Assembly (NCBI GenBank): GCA_938048735.1
Contig: CALIUM010000011.1
Span: forward strand, 24,816-88,815
Source: an uncultured archaeon
Lineage (GTDB): Archaea > Thermoproteota > Bathyarchaeia > TCS64
Length of the DNA: 64,000 nt
Direction of reading: 5' to 3'
Made by a program: the position numbers and the translations under genes. Numbering within the stretch: position 1 is the stretch's first letter; each line of letters starts with the position of its first letter. This document shows, piece by piece, positions 21,956 to 41,805 of the stretch. The notes under the pieces were generated by a model. It searched no databases. It worked only from the letters and a program-made list of their open reading frames with translations, and had not been told where the DNA came from.

Positions 21956-22376
21956 TTGCCGATATCTTTTTATATCAGTTTATTCACTAAAACAATAGAG
22001 ATGAAATCAGTATCGTTGTTCTTGTTAGGTTTTCTCTCCCTTTTATCTATAAGTATAACCGTAGCTGCAGTTGTGGAGCCATATGTGTGGTACAAGTATC
22101 AAACTATTTCAGATAAGCTATATTTTGATCAATCTGGATCATTATTATAAAGAACCATATGCTGTGTCAGTAAGGATAAATGCTGTTGAACCATCTGGGG
22201 CTAAACTTAGAGTAGCAATTTATGTTAATTATGTGGAGAAATGGTTTGGATATCTCGGATCAGGAGAAAGTTCCCCCACAATCGTTTGTGTTGATCAAGA
22301 AACAATGGTAGATGTATGTAATAACACACAGGGATATATAGAATATAGAGGTCTTATAACTTGGGTTATGCATTGA
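21956..22376 (+). other. Two overlapping small ORFs in different frames (64 aa with signal peptide; 101 aa) in an AT-rich islet; possibly a frameshifted or degenerate gene
   Basis: ORF 21956-22150 (signal-peptide-like MKSVSLFLLGFLSLLSISITVAAV) overlaps ORF 22071-22376 in another frame; local GC is far below the genome background. Confidence 0.25.
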
Positions 22377-22526
22377 CTATAAAGATCAAAATGTTGGAGG
22401 GAATTAATGTTAGGATTTTTTACAAAAGAAATTTCTATAGATAGATATAAGTTATACTTATCCTCCAAAATTTAGATCAATAAATTTGTACTAAATATTT
22501 ACAAATCATGTATAAGTTGTTTTTCT

Positions 22527-23306
22527 TTGTCAAAAATGATAAAGGAAATGGAAGAGCTAGGTGAAAAAAGATATCAAACTGATAGAGGACAACTTTACGT
22601 TAAAGATCTCATCTACATAATTTCCTTGATAGGGCTGACTTTGGTCTCTGGTCTCTACATAGATCTGTATAGAAGGTTTAACTCTCAACATGATATCCTC
22701 CTGAAACAGGAAGAGGATCTTAGAATTTTGAGAGATAAATTTGATGATTTAATCCCCATCCTTGACCTTATAAACATGTCGTTAGAAAGGCCTCCAACCT
22801 ACTCCGATAGGGGTATTATTCTTGTCTCCGGCTATAGTATTGAGTACTGGGTTAGGAAGGTTGATTCAGACTTCAGGAGGAGCGCATTAACCTCCTTCGC
22901 CGTATTCTATGCCCCATATGAAGACTTAACTCTAAGGATGCATCTCTTCTTCTGGCCTAGGAATATTCTAGAGGTACCATTAACAATCCAGAGTGGGAAT
23001 GCACTCCGCAATGAGTCAGGTATCTTTGTTGGGAGGAGGGGCGACATAATCACCTGGCAGTCCCCAGTCGTCTGGTCGATAAACGTCAGCAAGGTTGGTA
23101 TCTATGAGACAATTCTACCATCCAAGGGTTGGTATACCCTATCCATATCAGGCCCAATTCAAATACAGAGTCGAGACGATCCCCAGTCCGCGACATCCCT
23201 TCACATCTCATACATCCCATACTTTAATGATCTCCAGATAAATTTAGATTTCAAACTCTTAAGGAATGGTGAGCCAGTCATTTTTGCTATTATGAGAAGA
23301 TGGTGA
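22527..23306 (+). CDS. Hypothetical membrane-anchored protein (AT-rich islet)
   Basis: 259 aa; one N-terminal TM helix (LIYIISLIGLTLVSGLYIDLY); no recognisable catalytic motif; AT-rich codon usage. Confidence 0.5.
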   Translation: MSKMIKEMEELGEKRYQTDRGQLYVKDLIYIISLIGLTLVSGLYIDLYRRFNSQHDILLKQEEDLRILRDKFDDLIPILDLINMSLERPPTYSDRGIILVSGYSIEYWVRKVDSDFRRSALTSFAVFYAPYEDLTLRMHLFFWPRNILEVPLTIQSGNALRNESGIFVGRRGDIITWQSPVVWSINVSKVGIYETILPSKGWYTLSISGPIQIQSRDDPQSATSLHISYIPYFNDLQINLDFKLLRNGEPVIFAIMRRW

Positions 23307-23476
23307 TAGGGTCGTTAAGGCCTTTAATTTTTCAAAAGTTCTCCAATATTAACTTATTGATTTACCTTTAGTCTTAGGTCTTCCTCATGAGAGGGGAGCC
23401 AGGGGGACTCATTCCGGCCTCAGGCCTCAAATATAGCTTTATACCATCCATCCGCAAAACTTCAATATGGTCAAGT

Positions 23477-25255
23477 ATGCTCTACGCCACCCTTGTTGAG
23501 GCTTACCAGAGGCTTGAGGCAACCACCAAGAGGCTCGAGATGACAGATATCTTGGCGGATATGCTCAGGAGGGCGGACCTGGATGAGATTGATAAGGTCA
23601 TCTACCTGACCCAGGGGAAGATCCACCCCGACTGGACTGGGGAGCCTGAGATAGGTATCGCTGAGAAGATGGCCATCGAGAGCATAGCTAGGGCATCGGG
23701 ATTGGGGAGGGAGGAGGTGGAGAGGCTCATGGCCGAGACCGGGGATATAGGCCTCGCCGCTGAGAGGGCTATGGAGAGGAGGCGCCTGGGAAGGCTCGGG
23801 GGAGGACAGCTAACGGTGTCTGATGTCTACAACACCTTTGATAGGATAGCGAAGGAGTCTGGTAAGGGGAGCAGCGAGAGGAAGATAGAGAGGCTTATAG
23901 GGCTGTTCTCTGAGGCCTCACCCCTAGAGGTTCGATACATAACTAGGACCGTTGTTGGAACCCTACGCCTGGGGGTCGGGGATATGACGATACTCGACGC
24001 ATTGGCCATCGCCTACACAGACTCAGCCGAGAATAGGGATATTCTTGAGAGGGCATACAACCTCACCAGCGACCTCGGATACGTCGCTAAAACTTTGGCG
24101 AGGGAAGGGCTTGAGGCCTTGGAGAGGGCCAAGCCGGTCCTCGGAAAGCCGATAAGGATGATGCTGGCCCAGCGCCTCTCAACTCCCCAGGAGATACTGG
24201 AGAAGCTTGGGGGAGGGGGCTCAGCTGAGTACAAGCTTGACGGGGAGCGATTCCAGATCCACAAGATGGGAAACGAGATCCAGATATTCTCAAGGAGGCT
24301 TGAGAACATCACCTCCATGTATCCTGACGCGGTGGAGATGGCGAGGAGATACATAAAGGCCAAGGAGGCCATCGTCGAGGGGGAGGCGGTGGCCATAGAC
24401 CCTGAGACCGAGGAGATGAGACCCTTCCAGGTCCTGATGCAGCGGCGGAGAAAATACAGGATAGAGGAGATGATGGAGAAGTTCCCAATCGCCCTATTCC
24501 TCTTCGAGTGCCTCTACGTAGACGGCGAAGACCTGACCCTCAAGCCTTACAGGGAACGCCGCAGGAGGCTCAAGGAGATTATCGAGGAGACCAGCAGGTT
24601 CCGACTAGTGAGATCCATAGAGACATCTGAGGCATCAGATCTTGAGAGGTTCTTCGAGGAGGCCATCACAGAGGGCTGTGAGGGCCTGATAGTGAAGTCA
24701 ACAGCCGACGACTCCCTATACAGGGCAGGGGCGAGGTCTTGGATGTGGGTCAAGCTGAAGAGGAGCTATCAGAGCAGGATGGTGGAGCCAGTCGACCTCG
24801 TAGTCGTAGGGGCCTTCCACGGGCGTGGCAAAAGAGCAGGCAGCTATGGAGCCCTCCTAGCCGCCGTATACGACCCATATGAGGATGTCTTCAAGACAGT
24901 CTGTAAGGTTGGCTCCGGCTTCACTGACGAGGACCTTGAGAGGCTGCCGAAGATGATGGAGGAGTACAGGCGCGGGGAGAAACATCCAAGGGTAGACTCC
25001 CTCATAGAGGCCGATATCTGGTTCACCCCCAGCCTGGTCATAGAGGTTATAGGGGACGAGATCACCCTGAGCCCGGTCCACACGGCCGCCTTCAACACTA
25101 TAAGGGTCAACTCAGGCCTCGCCATCAGGTTCCCCAGGTTCACAGGTAGGTGGAGGTCAGATAAGGCCCCTGAGGACGCGACCACAGTGGCTGAGATCGT
25201 CGATATGTATAAATCCCAGCTCAAGACCATAGCAGGGGAGGCCGAGGAGAGGTAG
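23477..25255 (+). CDS. lig: ATP-dependent DNA ligase
   Basis: Adenylation motif KLDGERFQIHK (KxDGxR); OB and DNA-binding domains; start moved to MLYATLVEAYQRLE (the track ORF begins at 23387). Confidence 0.9.
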   Translation: MLYATLVEAYQRLEATTKRLEMTDILADMLRRADLDEIDKVIYLTQGKIHPDWTGEPEIGIAEKMAIESIARASGLGREEVERLMAETGDIGLAAERAMERRRLGRLGGGQLTVSDVYNTFDRIAKESGKGSSERKIERLIGLFSEASPLEVRYITRTVVGTLRLGVGDMTILDALAIAYTDSAENRDILERAYNLTSDLGYVAKTLAREGLEALERAKPVLGKPIRMMLAQRLSTPQEILEKLGGGGSAEYKLDGERFQIHKMGNEIQIFSRRLENITSMYPDAVEMARRYIKAKEAIVEGEAVAIDPETEEMRPFQVLMQRRRKYRIEEMMEKFPIALFLFECLYVDGEDLTLKPYRERRRRLKEIIEETSRFRLVRSIETSEASDLERFFEEAITEGCEGLIVKSTADDSLYRAGARSWMWVKLKRSYQSRMVEPVDLVVVGAFHGRGKRAGSYGALLAAVYDPYEDVFKTVCKVGSGFTDEDLERLPKMMEEYRRGEKHPRVDSLIEADIWFTPSLVIEVIGDEITLSPVHTAAFNTIRVNSGLAIRFPRFTGRWRSDKAPEDATTVAEIVDMYKSQLKTIAGEAEER

Positions 25256-26723: not shown

Positions 26724-27863
26724 TTATTTGCTCCGGTGCCTCTCAAACCTCACATTTGAAAATCTCGGGGGTCTTCCTCTCTTAATGAGGATAATAACCG
26801 TCAGGGCTATTATCCATATAGAGGCGACCATGATTATGGGGGCTAGGGGGGTTTCCCGGGAATTTTGGTCTATCACTGAGGCGGTATCATAGCTCTTTAT
26901 GTAGAGGCTCCCAGCCATAACGGCCTCCCTCATCTTCCTCGACTCGCCTACATAGTCGTATCTCGAGACATTTAGAGCTGTGACGACGGAGGGGCCATAT
27001 TGTGGGGCCTCCATTATAATGGTTAGGGGCTCCTTCGCCCTTGTGAGGGTTAGGTCGATGGGGAGCCATCCCCATGGTGGTATGTACACTAGGGCCCAGC
27101 CGTGCCATCCAACCCCCTTTTGAGAGGTGCTCAGATGCCCTCCCCAGGAAACCTTATCTCCGGTGATTCCCTCATTGAAGACCATCCCCAGCTGTAGTAG
27201 AGCCGGTACGCCTAATATTCGGCACATGGTTACAAGGAGTATTGCCTGGTCATCGCAGTCCCCCCTCCCAGAGGCTATCGTCTCGTTCGGATAACGAGGG
27301 GTCTCGAAGCTTCCATAGGATATGTTCTCCAACATCCAACTCAGTAAGCTTAGAACCATTCCCAGGACGGTCGATTGGTTTGCGGCCAGCCTTAGGGCTA
27401 GGGCGCGGATCCCCTCATCCCCTGTTGTGAAGGTTCCCGTCTCCATGGTGTACTCGTCGATGAGTTCCCTCGGGATCTCCGAGATCGCGCCAGCCCTTTC
27501 TGGGTCTATCCTTGGTCTGGGCATCTCAGAGGTCTCGATCAAGTAGGTCACGGAGAAGTTGACGCTAGAATTTGGAGCGATGGTCAGGGGTATATCGAGA
27601 ACCGCCAGCTTGTTCCCATCCTCGTCAAAGTAATCTCTGACTACGGAGTTTGTCAGGTTGATAATCCTAATGTTCTGCTTGCTATCGTTGTGGAAGAGGA
27701 GGATGGTTATGTCATCAACCGTCAACATGTAAGGCTCCTCTCCCCTATTCTCGAAGATGTATGTTGATGTGTATAGTCTCTTGATAGTCAGCCCTTCATG
27801 GACTCCTCTAATAGGCGATATTGAGATCAGGAGGGTTAGTAGGAGGAGCGCCTTCAAGCTCAA
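26724..27863 (-). CDS. Secreted transglutaminase-like cysteine protease-fold protein with a C-terminal TM anchor
   Basis: Signal peptide; GRGDCDDQAILLVTMCRILGVPA matches the transglutaminase-like core (Cys...R..G[IV]PAR); C-terminal hydrophobic helix then KRGRPPR. Confidence 0.6.
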   Translation of the reverse strand: MSLKALLLLTLLISISPIRGVHEGLTIKRLYTSTYIFENRGEEPYMLTVDDITILLFHNDSKQNIRIINLTNSVVRDYFDEDGNKLAVLDIPLTIAPNSSVNFSVTYLIETSEMPRPRIDPERAGAISEIPRELIDEYTMETGTFTTGDEGIRALALRLAANQSTVLGMVLSLLSWMLENISYGSFETPRYPNETIASGRGDCDDQAILLVTMCRILGVPALLQLGMVFNEGITGDKVSWGGHLSTSQKGVGWHGWALVYIPPWGWLPIDLTLTRAKEPLTIIMEAPQYGPSVVTALNVSRYDYVGESRKMREAVMAGSLYIKSYDTASVIDQNSRETPLAPIIMVASIWIIALTVIILIKRGRPPRFSNVRFERHRSK

Positions 27864-30030: not shown

Positions 30031-30471
30031 TCAACCCGAATATCTTGGCCTCAACCTCCAGATCCTACCCATCCTCTCATATCTTGAGGCTATCGCGCTC
30101 GAGGCATCCCTAAATAGGTTCTCTGGGTCATAAAGGGGTAGCCCCTCCGATAATGCGTCAAGGATTACCCCCCACCCTCCCTTAATTCCCTCCCAAAGTT
30201 CCTCCGGGGTCAGCCAGATATCCTCAACGGCCAATGGGCGCTTCCTCAGCCTCGAGGTATAAGCCCTCCTCTCCAACAGTCTTTTGGGAAGACCTCTCGA
30301 TACTACAAGTACATCAACATCACTTTCTGGATAGGGTTTAATGAAACCTCTAACTATGGATCCAAAGACAACTATTAAGAGGATCTCATTGAAAGTTTTC
30401 TTTGCCTCCTCCAGAAATTCCTCTAGGTCTTCTATATATTTTCTCTCTCTAACTCTCAAGAGCTTTAACAA
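30031..30471 (-). CDS. Nucleotidyltransferase (MNT/minimal NTase) antitoxin-like protein
   Basis: GS...DxD motif: FGSIVRGFIKPYPESDVDVLVV; 146 aa; overlaps the upstream HEPN gene by 7 nt. Confidence 0.7.
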   Translation of the reverse strand: MLKLLRVRERKYIEDLEEFLEEAKKTFNEILLIVVFGSIVRGFIKPYPESDVDVLVVSRGLPKRLLERRAYTSRLRKRPLAVEDIWLTPEELWEGIKGGWGVILDALSEGLPLYDPENLFRDASSAIASRYERMGRIWRLRPRYSG

Positions 30472-30941
30472 TCCAATCCCTCGATGATCTGCTTTGCAAT
30501 CCTGAATACCTCTCTAGCATTTGCCACAAGTAGATGGGTCTTCTCCTCGTCATATATTTCAGAGGGCTTTATAACTCGATCTATGGTCTCCCAGCCATAC
30601 CTAGGTGCCACGCCCTGATCCTCGAGCACTAAGGAGAGGGAGACCAGTCTATCTAGAAGGCGCATCTCCTCCTCTGGAAGTTCTATAAGCCCACCGATCA
30701 TTAACCCTCTAAGCACTAGACTAGGCCTATGGGTTTTCCCAGGTTCAAAGCCAAGGGCTACTATAACGCCCTTCACACACTTCTGAGCGGACAGCTCGGC
30801 GTGGAAGACGGAGCTGCCATATCGCCCCTCCCTTAAGTCAGCGTCAGAATCATCTAAATCCTCCTCAGCCATAGATAACCAGTCTAAGGCCTTCCTGGTT
30901 ACAGGCACAAACAGCACCGTAAGAGAGAAGGCAAAGCTCAT
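30465..30941 (-). CDS. HEPN-domain protein (toxin-like partner of the MNT)
   Basis: ~120-aa all-alpha domain, operonic and overlapping with the MNT gene; the true start is probably an internal Met (MAEEDLDD). Confidence 0.6.
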   Translation of the reverse strand: MSFAFSLTVLFVPVTRKALDWLSMAEEDLDDSDADLREGRYGSSVFHAELSAQKCVKGVIVALGFEPGKTHRPSLVLRGLMIGGLIELPEEEMRLLDRLVSLSLVLEDQGVAPRYGWETIDRVIKPSEIYDEEKTHLLVANAREVFRIAKQIIEGLDC

Positions 30942-31672: not shown

Positions 31673-31745
31673 GGGCTGGTAGATCAGTGGTATGATCGCC
31701 GCCTTGGCAGGGCGGAAGTCGCGGGTTCAAATCCCGCCCAGTCCA
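31673..31745 (+). tRNA. tRNA-Ala (anticodon GGC), no intron, CCA not encoded
   Basis: Acceptor GGGCTGG/CCAGTCC (one G-U pair); D-arm GATC-AGTGGTAT-GATC; anticodon stem CCGCC/GGCGG with loop TTGGCAG; T-arm GCGGG-TTCAAAT-CCCGC; discriminator A. Confidence 0.85.
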
Positions 31746-31867
31746 CTCTTCTTTTGGAAAATGGACCCCGTTTAAAGCCTCGATCAATCTTCTGAGGCAG
31801 AAATTGAAGGCCCAAGCCAGGTCAAGGTTCAATTCTTTAGCCCTTTTTAGGAGATCATCGTTCATTC

Positions 31868-33267: not shown

Positions 33268-33581
33268 ATCAATCCGATGGATTTTATCACCAACCCTTTA
33301 TTTAAAACAATGCCCAAAACCTTACCTTAAGAGTTAAGAACCGAAACTCCAGAGCCTAGGCTCTCCATTAGAATTATCCTCAAGATAAGATGAAGAACCC
33401 ACTTCCCCAAGAACCCCTCTATCCCTGTCAAGAATGAGATCCACAATTTAGGCCTCCAATCAGGCCCATGTAGGTTACTCCGTCATATAGGCTGGGGAGG
33501 CGGCCTTGGGGGAGATGGATGATTAAGCTTTAATTCGCAATCCTTTTAAATATGATGAATCCCTTATACTAAAGGAGACAA

Positions 33582-34562
33582 ATGAAAACAAAAATACCAT
33601 TAGTATGCTTAATTATAATATCTATATCAATTATGGTTATTCCATCTCATTGTGCAGAAGAAGGAGGATGGATCTCATGGTATAAAGTAGAAGATTTAAA
33701 GACGAAAAAATTGATAATGGAAAAAGATCTTATAACAGGAAATGAAAAAATCTATGAACCTGTACTTAGCGGTGCAGAATATAATGTAACTGTTGTTTTA
33801 AATATCGCTGTAACTGTACCTCGATCTGTTTTGAAGATCAATACATCATTAGAACGTGCAAGCTTGTTGGATAGGTTTTGGGAGCTTCACACTAAAGATT
33901 ATCCTATGGTTAATTATAATCCAAGTGAAAAAGCTGTAAGATTTAACCAGGTCAAAGGAAATCTTACAATATCAATGTATGGAAGAATTCCTCAAAATAT
34001 AACAGAAAAAATTTTTAACGGATATGTTATTAATAAAGCGGTTGATTATTCCGTTTTAGAATTGAGAGGTCCAAACGATGAAATATTAGATTATTTATCT
34101 TTCAATGTGATAGATTCAAAAATTCATGAATATCGAAATTTGTTAAGGTCAAAAGAAAATGATTTGAAAAATATTAAAAATCAAGGAGTAATAAGTTCAT
34201 ATGTTAAGTTATATGAAAAAATGTTAAATCAATCAAAGTTTGAGGCAGAAAAGGGTTTCATAGATAATGCCATAAAAATATTGAATTTGTTATCTATAGA
34301 AGGAGCTCCCAAAGAACCAACCCCATCAATTTTAGAAACATTATTTTACCCAACTGTTTTGATACTAATAGGTGTGATTGTATTTACCGGATTCATGTTT
34401 CAAAGAAGCAGAGCTAAATTGAATTATACCTTAATGGTGGTTGAAGAACAAGTCAAAGAGCTGGAGGGTCTAGGGGTCAGATTATCTAAAATAGATAAAA
34501 ATATTTCTTTAAATTTGGATGGTATTAAAGATAGGCTGAAAAGGTTGGTTGGGGTGTCCTGA
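33582..34562 (+). CDS. Type-I membrane protein: signal peptide, ~220-aa extracellular domain with several N-glycosylation sequons, single TM helix, ~55-aa cytoplasmic tail
   Basis: N-terminal LVCLIIISISIMVIPSHC; NVT/NTS/NLT/NIT sequons; TM TVLILIGVIVFTGFMF followed by QRSRAK; the stop overlaps the next gene start (translational coupling). Confidence 0.6.
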   Translation: MKTKIPLVCLIIISISIMVIPSHCAEEGGWISWYKVEDLKTKKLIMEKDLITGNEKIYEPVLSGAEYNVTVVLNIAVTVPRSVLKINTSLERASLLDRFWELHTKDYPMVNYNPSEKAVRFNQVKGNLTISMYGRIPQNITEKIFNGYVINKAVDYSVLELRGPNDEILDYLSFNVIDSKIHEYRNLLRSKENDLKNIKNQGVISSYVKLYEKMLNQSKFEAEKGFIDNAIKILNLLSIEGAPKEPTPSILETLFYPTVLILIGVIVFTGFMFQRSRAKLNYTLMVVEEQVKELEGLGVRLSKIDKNISLNLDGIKDRLKRLVGVS

Positions 34563-37218
34563 TTTGTCAAAACAGCCCTCTAACATAATTCACCTAATAG
34601 GTTTAGGTTCCGCTGGGACGAATATAGTTGAAGCCTTTATTTCAAGTAAGAAAACCATGAACTTATTAGAAAATGAAAATACTCGCCTATCCCTTTTAGC
34701 TATAGATGTTGCAGATCCAGATATCAGAAGTTTGCAGGAAACATATAGTAAATTATTAAAGGAGATGAAAGATAAGGGCATACCTAAAGAAAGAATTTCT
34801 CTAATAGCTCAATCCATTAAATTTCCAACCGCTGAAGCTATGTTTGACTTTATAAATGAAAAATATAAAGATCATTTAATTAGTGAGGGTGTAACTCTTG
34901 AGGAATATTCCCCGTGGTTGCCTTCAACGATGGCGATACCACCTCTAGCAGGAGGCGCTGGTAGGAGAAGAGCTCTGGCTAAGGCGATATACGCCTTAAA
35001 CTATTACCAACTTGGAATCATAAGAAACTTCTTGAACTCTTTCAAGGAACAGGCCCTCTCATCGATAATGACCCCAATAGTGATGATCATCTACGGGATA
35101 GGTGGGGGGACCGGGAGCGGGATAGCCTTCGAGTTCGCTAGGCACCTCAGGAAGGTTCTAGGTTCAGGAGTTCCGATCATAGGCATGTCCATCCTTCCAT
35201 GCAGGGGGGATGACCCGCCCGCCAAGGGCTGCTCGGCCTTCTCCTCGTTAACCGAACTCTCACTGCTGTTGAATAAGGACTATAACGATTATATATGCAA
35301 GAATTATGGTGAATTCTATAGAAACCCCTTCAACGCATTTATATGCATTCCACTAACTCCAGCATATTCAAATACAGGGAACATAATAGTAGCTAGAAAA
35401 GATATCGATGAAATGATTATAGATATAATATATATGTTAATGGATTTTGATTTATCTGATCTATTAGGGGGAATAGGAACTGAAGTAGGGTTAACCGAAG
35501 ATTATATTCATACAATAAGTATGACAAAAGTTGTTTATCCAGTAGATGAATATATAGATGCTTTTAAAATATACTTAGATAGAATACAAACTTTATACGA
35601 ATTCAGAAAAGAGAAACTTGAAATAATAAACAATATTAATGAAATATTGATGCTAAGATATAATGATATAAAGGAAATCCTAAAAATGTATTTGATAAAA
35701 ACAGGAACATATGTGGAAGAACAATTCGATGAAAAAACTAAATCCATAATAAGGAGCTCATCAAGATTTAACGAAGATTATTGGTTATATATCAAAGGAG
35801 TAGAAGATCAAATAAAAAATTGGATTAGTGAATTGTCAAAATTCTTGACAACAATAAAATTGACAGCTAAAACCGGGACAATAGAAGACGCCATTGTCAA
35901 TTTAACACTCCACAAAGAGGAATCAAGGGAAATGGATAATCTCGAAGATCTATTAACAAATATCACAAAAACATACATTGAATTCCCAGAAAAAAAGGGG
36001 ATAATTTTTGAAAGATTAAAACAGTTAATTCCAAGCTCACAAATACTTACTATAAGACAGAAAAGGATTTTAGATGATTTAATGAACATTACAGAAATTG
36101 TAGATAAAACTCTCCAAATATTTAAATTATATAATGAATCCAGATTTTTAACAGAAACATTAATTAGATATTACTCAGCAATTCCTGAAACAGAATCAAT
36201 ATCGAGAGAATTAAAAGAGATCAGAACAGAACTTACATGTTTATACTATATTGTCCAACTAATCTTGAAAACCCCATTAGATGAAGCTAAAATAATAGAT
36301 GAAAATTTGACTTATCTTCAAGGAATCATAAATAAGATAAGGGATGAAATTAACGTTATAAATGAGGAAATATTGAGAATGGAAGAATCGAAAAAGAGAA
36401 AGGAATTTGATCGTACAAAGTATGAACAAGAAATTGGAAGGTTTTTTGGAATAGGTAGAAGAAAATATATTAAAGAAAAACTGGCTAAGTTAGAGATTGA
36501 TATAAAAAGAATCGAGGAAGAGAAAATTTATTTAGAGAAAAATGCCAAAGATTATGATGTTTTACTAAGATCTTATAATAACTTGATGAGAAAAATTGAT
36601 GTCACTTCAGATTATAGAAGAAAGTTGAACAAGATTATAGAATTATATGGCGCCTATCAAGATAAGATATCTGATGTTCTTAAACCAAAAAAATATTTTG
36701 AAAAGACAACCGAACTAACTGAAACAGAACAAGTAAAAATAATATATAAAATTTTAGCCGAACAAGAGGAAGATTTATCAAGAGAAGGTATCTTAAAAGA
36801 AATCCTTGATACAGATCATTTTAAGGACTATATGAAAAGTGTGATTAGGATTTTCAGGACTCCAAGTTTTATGGGTTTAAATACATCATTTAAATCAGAT
36901 TACATATGGGTAACAGTTCAGACCCCCCAGGGTCTTTGGAATGAAGAATTAACTCAAGAGATTTACACTGTTTTAGCAGGATATATTGTGGGAGAAGTAT
37001 CAAGGAATGTTACAATTAGAATAATAGATTCAAGGGATCCATGGACGATAAGGATTCTTGTTGTAGGTGGAAGAGGAAAACCTATGAATTTAGAAACATA
37101 TGATGAGATGCATGTGCTTTACAATAAATCAACAGAATTTGAAAAACAACTTTCTAGATCCTTTTTAATTGAGCATGAAATCAACATTAATAAGATTATC
37201 GATAAAATAAATCTTTAG
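34549..37218 (+). CDS. Divergent FtsZ/tubulin-superfamily GTPase (N-terminal ~330 aa) fused to a ~560-aa coiled-coil-rich C-terminal region
   Basis: T1-like IGLGSAGTN; T2/T3-like LLAIDVADPD and AGGAGRRRALAKA; T4 tubulin signature GIGGGTGSG; T5-like MSILPCRGDDPPAKG; the remainder is heptad-rich K/E/I/L sequence. Confidence 0.7.
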   Translation: MGCPDLSKQPSNIIHLIGLGSAGTNIVEAFISSKKTMNLLENENTRLSLLAIDVADPDIRSLQETYSKLLKEMKDKGIPKERISLIAQSIKFPTAEAMFDFINEKYKDHLISEGVTLEEYSPWLPSTMAIPPLAGGAGRRRALAKAIYALNYYQLGIIRNFLNSFKEQALSSIMTPIVMIIYGIGGGTGSGIAFEFARHLRKVLGSGVPIIGMSILPCRGDDPPAKGCSAFSSLTELSLLLNKDYNDYICKNYGEFYRNPFNAFICIPLTPAYSNTGNIIVARKDIDEMIIDIIYMLMDFDLSDLLGGIGTEVGLTEDYIHTISMTKVVYPVDEYIDAFKIYLDRIQTLYEFRKEKLEIINNINEILMLRYNDIKEILKMYLIKTGTYVEEQFDEKTKSIIRSSSRFNEDYWLYIKGVEDQIKNWISELSKFLTTIKLTAKTGTIEDAIVNLTLHKEESREMDNLEDLLTNITKTYIEFPEKKGIIFERLKQLIPSSQILTIRQKRILDDLMNITEIVDKTLQIFKLYNESRFLTETLIRYYSAIPETESISRELKEIRTELTCLYYIVQLILKTPLDEAKIIDENLTYLQGIINKIRDEINVINEEILRMEESKKRKEFDRTKYEQEIGRFFGIGRRKYIKEKLAKLEIDIKRIEEEKIYLEKNAKDYDVLLRSYNNLMRKIDVTSDYRRKLNKIIELYGAYQDKISDVLKPKKYFEKTTELTETEQVKIIYKILAEQEEDLSREGILKEILDTDHFKDYMKSVIRIFRTPSFMGLNTSFKSDYIWVTVQTPQGLWNEELTQEIYTVLAGYIVGEVSRNVTIRIIDSRDPWTIRILVVGGRGKPMNLETYDEMHVLYNKSTEFEKQLSRSFLIEHEININKIIDKINL

Positions 37219-37269
37219 GAAAATATAATAATACTAATTCCCAACAATTTCATACTACATCCTGATTTA

Positions 37270-38445
37270 TTACCCTAAAACATCTTTAAATTTTACTTTA
37301 TCTATTATACCTTTTTTAGTTAGGTATTCAATTGTTTCTCTTGATTTCTCTTCTAATAAATTCAAAATTTTTTCTTCATTAAAACCTCCAACTATAATCA
37401 TAATATCTATTCTGTCATTTGTTTCGTCTATAAAAATAGGATCACTAATATATATTGCTTTTGGTGTTGACTTTTCTCTTATCCATCTTATAAAGGTGGA
37501 TTCGATTTTTTCTTTGGTAATTTCACCCCTCAATTTAACTGGGATCCTGGCTAACACATAAAAAATATATGATTCTTTTAAATCAAAATTTAAGAGCGTT
37601 CTATATAACATTGAATTAAATATGTTTTCTAGAGAATCATAAATTTTCAGGCTGCAACCAGTAGAAATTAATATTGTATATAATTTAATATCGAAGTATT
37701 TTGAAAATCTTATAAAATCATTCACGAAACTCACTTTAGATAACATCAACCCTAGAATTTCATTCAGGATCATGCTCCCTTTAATTAAATTACCTTTCCT
37801 GTCAACTCCAACATAGTCTTCTAGAAGATCTCTGTTTATTATAAAGATTGGATAAAATCCTTTATTTATGCAAATAGTTATTGATGATACAGAATTAAAA
37901 TGGGCATCGGAGGGTTGTGTTGGAGATGGTATCAAAGCTATAGAGATCAAATCTATTTTCCATTCCATTAACTTTGATGTTATATATGGAAAAAGACCAC
38001 TTCCAACCCCATCCCATGTAGATGAAACTATTAATGCAGATTTAACCTTATGTAGAAGCCTGTCTTTTAAATCTGAATCTAATAATCCTCTCTTTTCAAT
38101 ATATTCATACATATTAAAACAAAAATGTTCATCGATATTAGGGTCGACATCTATAAAACTAAAAAAATCTATTTTATCAATGAAATTTTCTATGAAGAAT
38201 TCACTTTTCTTACCAATTAGGAGAAACAAAATATCGTTAGATGATTTTAACGATAAATTTTTTAAAAAAATGTTGTTTGTATATCCACCTAAACTTATAG
38301 ATGCTCTTTCTGGTATCCTGAGTTTCAATGACCTAATATGCCTCAAAACACTTTCAAGCACATCGAATGATTCTATACTCATCAGGTCACGAAGTAAACT
38401 TTTAAAGGCCTTACAAATAAATATTATGAATGAAGGCCATGCCAC
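37270..38445 (-). CDS. Degenerate FtsZ/tubulin-like paralog (possible pseudo-GTPase partner)
   Basis: Weakened motifs at FtsZ-like spacing: SLGGYTNN (T1), FIDVDPNI (T2/3), SSTWDGVGSG (T4, vs GGGTG[ST]G), IALIPSPTQPSD (T5); the start is probably the internal MSIESF (38382). Confidence 0.5.
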   Translation of the reverse strand: MAWPSFIIFICKAFKSLLRDLMSIESFDVLESVLRHIRSLKLRIPERASISLGGYTNNIFLKNLSLKSSNDILFLLIGKKSEFFIENFIDKIDFFSFIDVDPNIDEHFCFNMYEYIEKRGLLDSDLKDRLLHKVKSALIVSSTWDGVGSGLFPYITSKLMEWKIDLISIALIPSPTQPSDAHFNSVSSITICINKGFYPIFIINRDLLEDYVGVDRKGNLIKGSMILNEILGLMLSKVSFVNDFIRFSKYFDIKLYTILISTGCSLKIYDSLENIFNSMLYRTLLNFDLKESYIFYVLARIPVKLRGEITKEKIESTFIRWIREKSTPKAIYISDPIFIDETNDRIDIMIIVGGFNEEKILNLLEEKSRETIEYLTKKGIIDKVKFKDVLG

Positions 38446-40784
38446 GATTACATGATTCAGTTAAATTCATCCAAAGAATAATTAAAATTTTTACTTTTTC
38501 AGTTTCTTTTTCCGCCCTTTCTATGGGCCTTTCCTTCATTCCACTTCTTCCTCAACCCATACCACTAATAATATCTTTCATCATTTCTTTTTTAATACTG
38601 AATAATCGCAGAGAGGGAATGATTATGGGAAGCTTTCTAATTGGATTAGGATTAATATATCATTTGAGTAGAATAAACCTTATTTTAATACTTGGAAGCA
38701 CTGAAACAAAACTACTTTTTTTAAGTATTTTAATAATTTTTTTCCTTTTTACCCCAATAATTGCAAAAATATATGAAGATATCATAGCTATTTCTATTGG
38801 AATCATCGCTGCATCAATGCTTTTTTTCAATCAAATATACTTTTTCGCAGTACCCCTAATAATAGTTTTTGCAGGGATATACAAAAAACAAAGGATATGG
38901 CTAACATTATCATATTATGCTGTTATCTCGATTCCAATACAAATAATGCAATACATAAAATACATTTACAATGAAGAATATCATACTCTACCACCTTTAT
39001 ATGTTCCATTATCAGAAATCTTTAACGATATACAAGAATCAATGAAAAAAATAAGTATAAATGAAATATCAAGGGTTTTAGATATTATTTCTGGGCAGTT
39101 TAAATCGAGGTCAGACTCAACACTAAAATTCATGATAAATGCCGTATCTGAATATATAAACTCATTTCCAGGAGTCATTTTCTTTTTGATAATAATGTTC
39201 AGCCTTGTTTCCATAACTGCCTACATAATGTCTAATTCATTGAAAATCATCGAAAGTATGGAGATAACAAAAAAATATTCCAAATTCCTAGAAATATTTT
39301 TTTCAGTTATCACTGTAACGATAATTACAACACTATTCTATACATTTCTTATAATTCTTCAAGAACCATTATCCTACGTGGCAGAAATAAATCTTTTCAA
39401 CACAATGGCAGGCATTATTGGAACAGTATTAACTACCATCCCAATTTCCTTCATAAATTATGAGATGAAAATCAGCAAAATAATAGAAAGGCGCTCTGAA
39501 ATAATAAGAAGAAATTCTGAAAAATTAATGGATGATATGGAAAATTTTAACGAATTAATTAGAAAAATCAGTAAAAATATCCCAGTTAATGTTGACTCTC
39601 TAAAAAGTGAAGCTGTTTCAATTGAGGAAAAAATTAAAGATATATTGGATAATATAAAATATGGAATTTATGGTTTAACAGATTTGGAAAGTAAAATTTC
39701 AGCAATAGATACTGAAATAAAAGATGAAGTAAATAATTTATACAAAAAATTAAATACTGTATTGAATGAATATTATAGGAATGAAGACTATGACTTCAAT
39801 ACATTGCTAGAAAATTATAAAAAAATAGGAATTGAAATAAATGGCGAGATATCAATAAATTACATAGATGATGAACCAATAGAAATAAAAATAGAGAAAA
39901 TAGAAATGATGCTAAATAAGCAATGGGAAATAACTGAAAAAATTTTAGACATATATGAAAAAATATATAACATACTAAGAAATTATTATGATCCTTTACT
40001 TCCAGAAGAAAATCCTACTCTGGCTATTGCAAAACAAAAATTTCAAGAAAGGCAGTTTCCATGCGTTATCCTAGAGGCAGTATATATCTCGATTAATAAT
40101 CTGGAAATGCAATACTCAAAAGAAATATCTAATACTATTAACAGGTTAATTGAACTTATGAATTCAACAAAAAACATTTATATAAATAAAGAAAAATCAA
40201 CGATCTTAAGTAAGGAAATTCGTGATAGATTAATAGATGCTGAAAATAAGGTAAATAATTTAATAGAGATATCTGAGAAAAAAGTTTTCACTATAACTAA
40301 GGTTATTAAAGTAAACGAAATAATAAATGAATATGTAAAAATATATAAAGAGATGTTTCAAGACATATACGAAGAAATAACTCTAAAAGAAGGTCATATC
40401 GAAAAATTAGCAATTAGTGAGGGAATAAAATTTACAAAAAACAATCAAGTAAAAGACAAAATAATTTACATTTTAGAAACCCTAAAACGGCCTCATATTT
40501 ATAATATTAATGAAACTATAATTAATTTAGAAAAGTTTTTAATGCAAATTGATGAATGTTTCGAAATTATATCTAATTATAATGAAACTGAGGAAATCCT
40601 AGCGAACTACGAGATTTCAGAGTTAATTATGAAAAAACTATTAAGAGAAAAGGGATTAATAAAAATAAATGAACTTCCATTCAAAAAAGAAATTGCAAAA
40701 AAATATATGGAGATTTTCAGTCAGCGATATAAAAAAGATGTGATGCTTGATTTTGAAACATTTACAATTTACAGAGGGGATTAA
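38430..40784 (+). CDS. Polytopic membrane protein (~8 TM helices, N-terminal ~330 aa) with a ~450-aa coiled-coil cytoplasmic domain
   Basis: Multiple long hydrophobic segments followed by heptad-rich Lys/Glu/Ile/Asn sequence; AT-rich codon usage. Confidence 0.6.
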   Translation: MKAMPRLHDSVKFIQRIIKIFTFSVSFSALSMGLSFIPLLPQPIPLIISFIISFLILNNRREGMIMGSFLIGLGLIYHLSRINLILILGSTETKLLFLSILIIFFLFTPIIAKIYEDIIAISIGIIAASMLFFNQIYFFAVPLIIVFAGIYKKQRIWLTLSYYAVISIPIQIMQYIKYIYNEEYHTLPPLYVPLSEIFNDIQESMKKISINEISRVLDIISGQFKSRSDSTLKFMINAVSEYINSFPGVIFFLIIMFSLVSITAYIMSNSLKIIESMEITKKYSKFLEIFFSVITVTIITTLFYTFLIILQEPLSYVAEINLFNTMAGIIGTVLTTIPISFINYEMKISKIIERRSEIIRRNSEKLMDDMENFNELIRKISKNIPVNVDSLKSEAVSIEEKIKDILDNIKYGIYGLTDLESKISAIDTEIKDEVNNLYKKLNTVLNEYYRNEDYDFNTLLENYKKIGIEINGEISINYIDDEPIEIKIEKIEMMLNKQWEITEKILDIYEKIYNILRNYYDPLLPEENPTLAIAKQKFQERQFPCVILEAVYISINNLEMQYSKEISNTINRLIELMNSTKNIYINKEKSTILSKEIRDRLIDAENKVNNLIEISEKKVFTITKVIKVNEIINEYVKIYKEMFQDIYEEITLKEGHIEKLAISEGIKFTKNNQVKDKIIYILETLKRPHIYNINETIINLEKFLMQIDECFEIISNYNETEEILANYEISELIMKKLLREKGLIKINELPFKKEIAKKYMEIFSQRYKKDVMLDFETFTIYRGD

Positions 40785-41700
40785 AATGTATTCGTTTCAA
40801 GGATATAAAGTAGGTTTAGGCAATATCAAATTGGATATATTTGATGATCGAATTGAAATATATCTTGAAAGAGGTTATCTAAAAAAGAGTAAAGAAGTTG
40901 TGAAGGTAATTTATTTTAAAGAGATCAATAAGCTTGAAACCAATAATAATGACCTTATTATTTACTTTACTAGTGGTGAAATATATAATATAAGTTTCGA
41001 ACAAAGAGAAATATTGAAAAATATATATGATGAGTTAATTGTTATCTTAACGAAAATTAATGGCAATACTGACCGCAAAATCAGTGCAACTATGTTAACT
41101 GATTTAACTAAAAAATCTATTTGTTTGATTGATTTTTTATTTGATGTTGTTTTAAACTTACGGGGCAAAATTTTCTGGGAAAATTTAGAAAAGAATCTAA
41201 AAGATATGAAGAAAGTTTATGAAGATATTAAAGCAATTTATAATAATTTTGTGGATCTCGAATTTATGGAGGTTGAGAAAAACATAACTGATCGTAATCC
41301 TGAACAGATCCCCCTGAAGGTGTTTGATTATGTAAAACTAATATTGTCTTTTTATAGAGGTTTAGAAAAAATTGATGATAAAGATTTGATTATTTTAAAA
41401 TCTAAAATTATGGATTTTTCAAAAATTATTGAATCTGAGATATTATTGAACGATATAATAATAGGTATAATTCTAGGAGATGGCTTTGTCGATGAAGAAA
41501 TTGAGGTTTTTATAAATCTAATAAACCCCCTATTCAAAAAAATTAACATTACTTTAGAAAGAAGTGATATAATAAATCAATTCGAAGAACTAAAGTTTAA
41601 GGGAAAAGATTATCAAGTAATAAATAAAATTAGGAATTTCTTTAAGGATTTAGTCATGAGATATTTCTCTGGTGAAGGATTAAAGGTTTCCCTTCTATGA
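40747..41700 (+). CDS. Hypothetical soluble Lys/Ile/Glu-rich protein, last gene of the island operon
   Basis: 317 aa; overlaps the upstream gene end; no motif recognised. Confidence 0.5.
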   Translation: MILKHLQFTEGIKMYSFQGYKVGLGNIKLDIFDDRIEIYLERGYLKKSKEVVKVIYFKEINKLETNNNDLIIYFTSGEIYNISFEQREILKNIYDELIVILTKINGNTDRKISATMLTDLTKKSICLIDFLFDVVLNLRGKIFWENLEKNLKDMKKVYEDIKAIYNNFVDLEFMEVEKNITDRNPEQIPLKVFDYVKLILSFYRGLEKIDDKDLIILKSKIMDFSKIIESEILLNDIIIGIILGDGFVDEEIEVFINLINPLFKKINITLERSDIINQFEELKFKGKDYQVINKIRNFFKDLVMRYFSGEGLKVSLL

Positions 41701-41805
41701 GACTGGCTTGATTTTTAAGCTTCGCGCCCTCCTTTAATTTGGGTGTAGGCCTTGTCGTATGTCTATCAGGAGAGGTTGTGGAGAGGGGCTGAGAGGGGGT
41801 GCTGT

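Follow-up and report, generated by a model that had tools for sequence, protein, structure and literature searches.

An AT-rich island in a Bathyarchaeon chromosome encodes a putative membrane-anchored FtsZl1-type module with two tubulin-superfamily proteins

What does an AT-rich island in the chromosome of an uncultured Bathyarchaeon encode, and how did it come to lie among GC-rich genes? The island is found in a 64,000-nucleotide stretch of contig CALIUM010000011.1 (assembly GCA_938048735.1, positions 24,816 to 88,815), referred to here as the window, in which GC content falls from ~0.55 to ~0.27 across 33.53–41.70 kb. Exactly five intact open reading frames (ORFs), O1 to O5, fill the low-GC stretch. 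O2 encodes a tubulin-superfamily GTPase of the FtsZl1/Tubulin_2 family, O3 a tubulin-fold protein with degenerate nucleotide motifs, and O1 and O4 membrane proteins. Taken as a whole, the locus is best explained, in our view and with moderate confidence, as a horizontally replaced, compositionally foreign copy of an ancient Thermoproteota membrane-anchored two-tubulin cytoskeletal module that is a variant of the FtsZl1 system.

Composition and gene content of the island

The island and its genes, with positions in the window, are as follows.

33530–41705, no strand: AT-rich island holding the five-gene module and promoter region only (GC profile, GC content at third codon positions, boundary sequences)
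33544–33553, + strand: TATA-like box CTTTTAAATA, 29 nt upstream of the O1 ATG (read from sequence)
33582–34562, + strand: O1, 326 aa, signal-peptide single-pass membrane protein, its stop overlapping the O2 start (hydropathy, alignment)
34549–37218, + strand: O2, 889 aa, FtsZl1/Tubulin_2-family tubulin-superfamily GTPase (Pfam, Foldseek, motifs)
37270–38445, − strand: O3, 391 aa, full tubulin/FtsZ fold in which the nucleotide motifs are degenerate; convergent to O2, divergent from O4
38430–40784, + strand: O4, 784 aa, polytopic membrane protein (hydropathy, alignment)
40747–41700, + strand: O5, 317 aa as the listed ORF, soluble, fast-evolving, no known domain

In 500-nt windows GC content dropped from 0.52–0.56 to 0.22–0.37 between ~33,300 and ~41,750 and was back at 0.60 by 41,750, against a window background of 0.52–0.57. 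The edges read from the sequence are sharp, falling at ~33,530, just 5' of the TATA-like box CTTTTAAATA that represents a candidate archaeal promoter of O1-O2, and at the O5 stop codon (41,700). GC content at third codon positions (GC3) is 0.22–0.29 in the island genes versus 0.58–0.74 in six flanking genes. Similarly, the residues F, Y, M, I, N and K make up 0.36–0.48 of the island proteins versus 0.20–0.25 for the flanking genes, with the exception of the DUF2085 membrane protein (0.34). Domain matches identified the neighbours as genes for DUF2085 and zinc-ribbon proteins at the left and for gamma-glutamyltranspeptidase (ggt) at the right. The initial annotation, made from the sequence alone, had described a GC collapse over ~8.2 kb between these flanks and five ORFs with a different, AT-biased codon usage, and all of this was confirmed, the ORFs being intact and the compositional profile far from uniform.

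The same junctions recur in independent assemblies, both flanks in L038 and L039 (L numbers denote loci of other genomes) and the left junction in L001 and L042 until the contig ends, and the island is therefore not an assembly chimera. The closest relatives of the window are all Bathyarchaeota metagenome-assembled genomes. Within the island the O1/O2 and O4/O5 gene pairs overlap or abut. A sigma-70 promoter scan, a model inapplicable to archaea, scored at chance level only. Two antisense ORFs, one of 195 aa at 37868–38455 (+) within O3 and one of 93 aa at 35808–36089 (−) within O2, are most likely artefacts of AT-rich sequence with few stops in the complementary frames.

O2 and O3, two members of the tubulin superfamily

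Features assigned within O2 are listed below.

34600–34623, + strand: T1 loop G18-L-G-S-A-G-T-N25, phosphate binding (conservation)
35095–35121, + strand: T4 loop G183-I-G-G-G-T-G-S-G191 with the tubulin signature GGGTGSG (invariant glycines; HMMER alignment to the CetZ T4 loop)
35443–35460, + strand: T7-like loop D299-F-D-L-S-D304, directly 3' of predicted helix H7 (residues 279–298)
35542–36681, + strand: helical stalk, residues 332–711, with helices of 24–55 residues (secondary structure of the AlphaFold2 model)
36682–37215, + strand: C-terminal alpha/beta domain, residues 712–889 (secondary structure of the same model, alpha/beta at 718–870)

O2 scored 48.7 bits against PF13809 (Tubulin_2; gathering score 27), with profile positions 2–346 of 356 covered, and 39.5 bits against PF00091 (Tubulin; cut-off 33). 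Tubulin_2 is the family known in the literature as FtsZl1, and homologs of O2 carry the same precomputed PF13809 domain. When an AlphaFold2 model of O2 (predicted local distance difference test, pLDDT, 74.8) was compared with the PDB using Foldseek, matches at E <= 1e-3 comprised TubZ (the top match), CetZ, FtsZ and tubulin chains, all of the tubulin superfamily, and the model has the two-domain tubulin/FtsZ fold. In the T1 loop G18, G20, G23, T24 and N25 are invariant in 51 Bathyarchaeia homologs, and thaumarchaeal members read GLGGTG(V/A/T)N, retaining the G-x-G-x-x-G glycines. The T1 and T4 glycines are both kept across Bathyarchaeia and Nitrososphaerota. F300, D301 and D304 of the T7-like loop are likewise invariant across both archaeal classes; thaumarchaeal orthologs have N-F-D-L-A-D at this position, which is the FtsZ pattern NxDxxD, and the model places the elements in the order H7-T7-H8-S7. 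A putative T7 synergy loop with acidic residues (NxDxxD/E) is thus recognised in the O2 sequence, and catalysis is predicted from it. Clear FtsZ/tubulin motifs and fold had been proposed for O2 in the initial annotation, and both Pfam scores above their cut-offs, the conserved T1, T4 and T7 loops and the Foldseek matches bear this out.

The layout described for FtsZl1, with an FtsZ-like domain at the N terminus, a long coiled-coil stretch and, at the C terminus, a domain that is largely helical or globular, is matched by the O2 model. In the model the order of elements at residues 783–843 is strand-helix-strand-strand. The N-terminal block (residues 12–330 minus an insertion of ~55 residues) is too small to account for the 88–92% coverage of CetZ and FtsZ chains, and the rest of the C-domain would therefore be supplied by the distal domain. 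The modelled structure suggests that the stalk has been inserted into the tubulin C-domain after helix H9 and that the unit at residues 783–843 probably supplies its S8-H10-S9-S10 elements; hhalign gave no sequence support for a split C-domain. More than 750 full-length homologs of O2 were found at ~60% identity, those named by source being all from Bathyarchaeota or Bathyarchaeia. At O2 codons ~751–800 a local rise of GC3 to 0.6–0.8 was observed in many genomes of ~40% GC (e.g. L009, L016, L028), which could reflect a nucleotide-level constraint or a conserved codon set.

O3 probably starts at M22 (38382) rather than at the first codon of the listed ORF. Its AlphaFold2 model (pLDDT 86.2, predicted template modelling score 0.83) gave more than 1,100 Foldseek matches in the PDB at E <= 1e-3, the best 50 of which are all tubulin-superfamily chains. 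TubZ was the top match (5e-15), eukaryotic, bacterial and gamma tubulins, CetZ and FtsZ matched over the full length at about 1e-14, and target TM-scores against CetZ were 0.70–0.74. In a comparison of the O3 family profile with the PDB, the Asgard tubulin AtubB2 matched at 6e-4 and CetZ at 0.02, placing O3, as judged by sequence, closer to tubulin and CetZ within the superfamily. The nucleotide-binding motifs are degenerate, including the following element.

37999–38022, − strand: T4-equivalent of O3, S142-T-W-D-G-V-G-S149, replacing GGGTGSG (alignment of 51 O3 homologs)

Among these 51 homologs S142 and W144 are invariant and D145, G146, G148 and S149 nearly so. Of T1 only G53-x-Y55 is left, D-R-D stands in place of the D-N motif, an invariant R205 replacing the guanine-contacting Asn, no acidic NxDxxD motif was found at T7, and the PF00091 score of 17.4 bits is below the cut-off. 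O3 therefore lacks the canonical T1, T4 and T7 loops and is probably a fold-bearing pseudo-GTPase. An exhaustive profile search recovered 131 representatives among 1.84e9 proteins, indicating a narrow family, with a second tier of 420–460-aa proteins weakly matching PF00091 whose source-named clusters are from Nitrososphaerales, Thaumarchaeota or Thermoproteota. The O3-type partners in the Nitrososphaerota loci L106 and L107 retain GGGTG(S/A)G. Since these relatives of O3 in the same module keep the signature, both tubulins of the ancestral module were probably GTP-competent.

O3 had been described as a degenerate FtsZ-like paralog of O2. The tubulin fold and the degenerate T1 and T4 loops stand, whereas close paralogy was rejected, hhalign giving a probability of 5% and aligning only the T4-S5 stretch. 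On these sequence comparisons O2 and O3 appear as two members of one superfamily and not as recent duplicates. An equation of O3-like proteins with the 'FtsZ' of N. maritimus (Nmar_1262) was also unsupported, as its AGKAGSA motif and its N-terminal block VKEPVLVVGLGGAGSK are in no O3-like protein retrieved. Among source-named matches of the large homology search there was no cultured Nitrosopumilus protein, only proteins of uncultured marine Thaumarchaeota. Many thaumarchaeal O3-type proteins (P0279, P0306, L102 8001–9335 and L103 8001–9320 among them) carry an N-terminal zinc-ribbon extension of ~50 residues, C-x-x-G-H ... C-x-x-C, without counterpart in Bathyarchaeial O3.

Partner proteins, distribution and origin of the module

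O1 consists of an N-terminal signal/anchor helix (residues 7–25), an extracellular domain of ~220 aa with N-x-S/T sequons, a transmembrane segment (residues 250–268) and a conserved helical cytoplasmic tail, VVE(D/E)Q.K.LEGL..R..KIDK...L...K..LK, in which D305 and K316 are invariant across classes. Homologs of O1 are present at all 37 Bathyarchaeota loci and at L102–L107 (E 1e-29 to 1e-41), and no Pfam or PDB profile matched it. O4 has hydrophobic helices within residues ~39–310, then a helical/coiled-coil cytoplasmic region of ~440 aa (residues ~345–784) that ends in a conserved motif, Y717..E722..N726-Y727 ... L749-P750 ... Y759. Its PDB profile matches were to generic coiled coils only (keratin-type and designed, residues 366–480), neither a Walker A motif nor a Pfam family was detected, and homologs are encoded at every module locus. 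Hydropathy and cross-class alignment are consistent with the earlier description of O1 as a membrane-anchored surface protein with signal peptide and single transmembrane segment, and these together with the coiled-coil matches agree with that of O4 as polytopic with a long helical cytoplasmic part. O5 likely starts at ATG 40786, one base past the O4 stop, and has homologs in L038 (41% identity), L040 (E 3e-18), L104 (8e-14) and L102 (1.3e-8); its only Pfam match was sub-threshold. Pfam, NCBIfam and PDB profile searches of O1, O4 and O5 returned nothing informative.

The gene order O1+, O2+, O3−, O4+ is invariant in 37 of 37 species-representative Bathyarchaeota genomes. Most of these loci, from 30 or more species, share one conserved neighbourhood at local GC in which gene families c8, c4, c7 and c5 precede the module and c6, c13 and c16 follow it. 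The genes c6 and c13, which stand after O4 in this main group, were considered as equivalents of O5 and rejected, as hidden Markov models (HMMs) detected no similarity; read from sequence, they appear to encode a phosphoribosyltransferase and a hydrolase, and they are ordinary neighbours. A five-gene version was found at L038–L041 and L104. All five genes are also present at L102, L103 and L105 of Nitrososphaerota, the O5-like gene passing the HMM test in L102 only, while L106 and L107 have the four core genes with no O5 confirmed by HMM. Bathyarchaeial HMMs confirmed the Nitrososphaerota components other than O5 at E 1e-20 to 1e-234. Four different gene orders occur among the five-gene and Nitrososphaerota loci, and the arrangements on the Nitrososphaerota contigs are these.

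L102, L103, L105: O1, O2, O4, O5(−), O3
L104: O1, O2, O3(+), O4, O5
L106: O4, O3, O1, O2
L107: O4, O3, 213-aa ORF, O1, O2

That the same genes stay together although their order and strand were reshuffled several times argues strongly for a functional unit. The five genes thus form one real module, as had been proposed, given synteny in 37 genomes and recurrence in Nitrososphaerota; the module is not specific to a single island and is an ancient, widespread chromosomal module of both Bathyarchaeia and Nitrososphaerota, usually at native GC. At L102 (9322–13680), L103 (9317–13753) and L105 (10344–14753) a protein of 1,450–1,480 aa with transglutaminase-core and Big_1 matches is encoded, always convergent to the O3-like gene, and may be a further lineage-specific component. 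A 379-aa Transglut_core gene at 26724–27863 of the window looks unrelated to it. In a Bathyarchaeon of ~38% GC (L040/L041) the module lies between rpS13-S4-S11 and rpoD-L18e-L13-S9-rpoN-eno-S2 (L040 1–22694), where it looks like an insertion splitting a conserved ribosomal-protein/RNA-polymerase gene cluster; an 869-aa NosD/beta-helix protein and an ORF of 607–628 aa accompany it there. At least three distinct chromosomal contexts of the module were therefore seen.

Orthologous modules match the GC content of their own hosts, being at native GC in genomes of ~40% GC, and it is only in the high-GC lineage represented by the window, L001, L038/L039 and L042 that the composition of the module is foreign. 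In the high-GC relatives L075, L081, L084 and L085, whose zinc-ribbon protein is 59–63% identical, the arrangement ggt ... zinc-ribbon-DUF2085 is kept with no module genes between. The interval there holds ~4.8 kb of other high-GC genes, none of which occurs elsewhere in the window and which, read from sequence, appear to encode an M42 peptidase and DUF169-like, creatininase and saccharopine-dehydrogenase-like proteins. These four are fairly distant relatives, and no closer 'empty' site was found. In other lineages the same slot contains unrelated low-GC cargo, in one case with a transposase, and this position next to the zinc-ribbon gene has the look of a hotspot for recombination. Cargo beside the zinc-ribbon gene differs between L050, L055, L068 and L090; read from the sequences alone, it includes a beta-lactamase-like protein and an S9 peptidase beside a transposase in L050 (166–1038 region) and asparaginase-, cyclase- and glyoxalase-like genes in L068. 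We infer that the module entered, or replaced DNA in, the zinc-ribbon/ggt slot and that its source was far richer in AT.

When the window is compared with L038, divergence at the third positions of identical codons is 0.28–0.35 for island genes and 0.28–0.38 for flanking genes. As the two are equal, the island predates the split of these lineages, and acquisition would have occurred before the divergence of the window organism, L001 and L038. At this synonymous divergence of ~0.3, O2 is 88% identical, O3 74–75%, O4 63% and O5 41%. One segment of O2 departs in composition from the rest of the island.

34999–35298, + strand: host-like composition patch in O2, codons ~151–250, GC3 0.64–0.68 (GC3 along O2)

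Outside this patch GC3 in O2 is 0.12–0.34, and the patch, which lies over the T4 region, causes a GC bump at 34.75–35.5 kb. It is common to the three island-bearing loci examined (window, L001 and L038) and absent from every other lineage checked, which suggests that a native high-GC copy either took part in gene conversion in an ancestor or left this remnant. Signs of a mobile element were sought at the island. Direct and inverted repeats at its boundaries are at chance level, the 19-nt family D1 sharing only a 12-mer; no centromere-like repeats were detected, only two weak intragenic tandem repeats; and neither an integrase gene nor att repeats, remnants that the initial annotation had considered, were found in or at the island. 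The nearest tRNA gene, tRNA-Ala(GGC) at 31673–31746 (+), lies 1.8 kb left of the island beyond two host-GC genes and does not stand out as a target of integration; a spurious ORF of 82 aa overlaps it on the opposite strand. Viral occurrence, also envisaged, was searched for on 2.9 million viral contigs and no relatives of the module were present. The horizontal acquisition proposed at the outset is therefore supported for this lineage, by foreign composition and by absence from the relatives' slot, and the signatures of an integrated element (integrase or transposase, flanking direct repeats, tRNA target) are missing.

Predicted function and alternative explanations

Because the T7 motif is present, O2 may be a GTP-dependent polymeriser. 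It would bind GTP and assemble head-to-tail, alone or with O3, activating its own hydrolysis, and O3 would serve as its non-catalytic tubulin-fold partner, acting as cap, nucleator or second half of a heterodimer. The helical stalk of O2, ~380 residues long, would project from the polymer and bind O1 at its cytoplasmic tail and O4 at its coiled-coil domain, O5 being an accessory, and GTP-driven assembly would be coupled to the membrane and, via the extracellular domain of O1, to the cell envelope. Likely roles are membrane remodelling, cell-shape control or vesicle/envelope organisation rather than DNA segregation. A more specific version, suggested by analogy and put forward tentatively as the less probable case, is a two-tubulin machine in which a catalytic, stalked O2 and an O3 that is non-catalytic here and GTP-competent in other branches form an obligate heterodimer or capped polymer on a transmembrane scaffold of O1 and O4. 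Were this true, FtsZl1 proteins would be complete tubulins with the C-domain split by a giant helical insertion, the question posed in 2010 of whether the family can form tubulin-type filaments would be answered, and a previously undescribed cytoskeletal system would be common to Bathyarchaeia and the ammonia-oxidiser lineage.

The architecture had been thought to match no known system, yet O2 belongs to FtsZl1 (Tubulin_2), a family with operons for which a membrane-remodelling role was proposed by Makarova and Koonin in 2010 (PMC2875224). As in those operons, a protein above the Tubulin_2 gathering score is encoded with membrane-associated proteins, and the proposed role is the same and equally inferred; the envelope coupling suggested here fits and sharpens that proposal. 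The archaeal operon has the order A2-FtsZl1-GTPase-A1, A2 being a small membrane-associated protein of 164–334 aa (PMC2875224), and O1, a membrane protein of ~300 aa (326 aa) encoded immediately upstream of and overlapping the FtsZl1 gene, matches A2 in position and size. Unlike those operons, the module encodes no vWA protein, P-loop 'membrane-associated GTPase', OmpA-like protein or Ser/Thr kinase, these families having no match among the four partner proteins, and it has a second tubulin-superfamily protein (O3), the polytopic coiled-coil O4, and O5. In addition, H7, T7 and C-domain elements were not identifiable in FtsZl1 in 2010 (PMC2875224), whereas helix H7, a T7-like NxDxxD and probably the whole C-domain are recognisable in the O2 subfamily. 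The literature searched contains no description of an FtsZl1 gene that is accompanied by another tubulin-fold gene and by these membrane partners.

Like alpha/beta-tubulin, BtubA/B and AtubA/B, the module encodes together two diverged tubulin-fold proteins, one of which has lost catalytic or nucleotide-binding features, and the L106 and L107 variants keep GGGTG(S/A)G in both. Such pairs differ from O2 and O3, which are not close paralogs (the 5% hhalign probability given above), of which one bears an extension of ~560 aa, and which are both linked to membrane proteins. Sequence similarity to CetZ1/2, Asgard AtubA/B and OdinTubulin is limited to the T4-S5 region, and O3 is without canonical GTP motifs; CetZ, at ~350–400 aa, further differs from O2 in having no stalk insertion and in not being encoded with these membrane partners. 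Nmar_1262, the non-polymerising thaumarchaeal 'FtsZ' of a Cdv-dividing archaeon, resembles O3 in kind, being a divergent tubulin-family protein whose GTP motif is degenerate and which lacks a T7 loop; it differs in the N-terminal block and AGKAGSA motif noted above.

Four other explanations were weighed. The closest structural matches raise the idea that the island is the remnant of an integrated plasmid or virus whose TubZ/PhuZ-like type III system served partition or positioning. TubZ is the top Foldseek match of both O2 and O3, the island is AT-rich like many archaeal mobile elements, Tubulin_2 proteins occur on Borg extrachromosomal elements, and the module is found in at least three genomic contexts. 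However, TubZ/TubR/tubC and PhuZ systems share with the module the tubulin fold and not the DNA-binding adaptor, centromere repeats or plasmid/phage context. Among only five genes there is no TubR-like or other helix-turn-helix DNA-binding, replication, integrase or capsid gene, and comparison of the island proteins with PHROGs gave nothing significant. Two of the five proteins are integral to the membrane, there are neither centromere-like tandem repeats nor att repeats, no viral contig carries a relative, and the module mostly occupies a fixed core-gene neighbourhood at native GC. We therefore regard this explanation as very improbable, and the DNA-segregation analogy drawn in the initial annotation is not upheld. 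A conflict or defence system, in which an NTPase sensor with coiled-coil and membrane effectors kills or arrests the cell on infection, would suit a variable slot with differing low-GC cargo in relatives, the very fast evolution of O4 and O5, a HEPN/MNT pair 2.6 kb upstream of the island edge and a weak PADLOC match to LeoA in O4 (E 0.004, 14 bits). That match lies within the O4 coiled coil, no PADLOC match of any of the five proteins was significant, and no effector domain was recognised, whether nuclease, protease, TIR, pore-toxin or any other. Moreover, the conserved housekeeping neighbourhood in 30 or more species and vertical inheritance across two classes are unlike typical defence islands, and a defence role appears unlikely.

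Membrane-tethered FtsZ-family polymers drive division in most prokaryotes, and O2 and O3 might accordingly form a division ring tethered by O1 and O4. Linkage of archaeal ftsZ genes to translation genes is typical, and the position of the module inside the ribosomal-protein/RNA-polymerase cluster at L040/L041 would accord with a cytokinetic function. Against this, FtsZl1 co-occurs with conventional FtsZ and was judged an unlikely division protein by Makarova and Koonin (PMC2875224), and carriers of the module include Thaumarchaeota, which divide with Cdv proteins. The module is also absent from the syntenic site of high-GC relatives and so may be dispensable, a copy elsewhere in those genomes being possible. 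A cytokinesis machine is on balance improbable. The extreme AT and amino-acid bias, and the low identity of O3, O4 and O5 to close relatives at ordinary synonymous divergence, could also be those of a decaying, functionless xenolog drifting toward pseudogenes. No ORF is broken in any assembly that reaches it: the window, L038 and L039 have all five intact, and L001 has O1–O4 and L042 O1–O3 up to the ends of their contigs; this and the 86–88% identity of O2 at ~0.3 synonymous divergence indicate that O2 is constrained, and its catalytic motifs are intact. There is thus little to recommend decay as an explanation.

Several observations weigh against the favoured explanation, a replaced copy of an ancient membrane-anchored two-tubulin module. 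The function proposed is drawn from domain content and gene linkage only, with no experiment on any FtsZl1 protein or on the module in the literature searched, and confidence in the O2 model is moderate (pLDDT 74.8, and <50 at residues 119–144). O5 is absent beside O4 in the largest Bathyarchaeota group, the main one of ~40% GC. O4 (63%) and O5 (41%) evolve fast where flanking genes are 87–98% identical, which could reflect relaxed constraint. The island is older than the split of three lineages yet has not been ameliorated, for which a simple one-off transfer offers no explanation; no donor lineage of ~27% GC was identified, and no integrase, transposase, att site or directly adjacent tRNA was found in or at the island.

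FtsZl1/Tubulin_2 is the most divergent branch of the tubulin superfamily and has, since 2010, been known from sequence alone. The locus adds to it a compact, strongly conserved partner set of a second tubulin-fold protein, two membrane proteins and O5, common to two abundant and ecologically important archaeal classes. Presence of H7, the T7 catalytic motif and probably a full C-domain in this subfamily makes tubulin-type polymerisation a concrete, testable prediction. The module family also provides a natural series in which the partner tubulin ranges from canonical GGGTGSG to degenerate, useful for the origin of non-catalytic subunits such as those in alpha/beta-tubulin, and the island would illustrate cleanly how a cytoskeletal module can occupy a variable slot of a chromosome as a xenologous copy.

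Two further features of the window were recorded. The HEPN (30465–30941) and nucleotidyltransferase/MNT (30031–30471) genes, at 30031–30941 (−) in a mild GC dip, look like a toxin-antitoxin pair; at the corresponding position L038 has no Pfam-annotated counterpart, the sole gene there encoding 165 aa. A second, weaker GC dip (0.43) at 22000–24000 contains a 259-aa ORF (22527–23306, +) that has no Pfam match and lies just upstream of the gene for an ATP-dependent DNA ligase (23387–25255).

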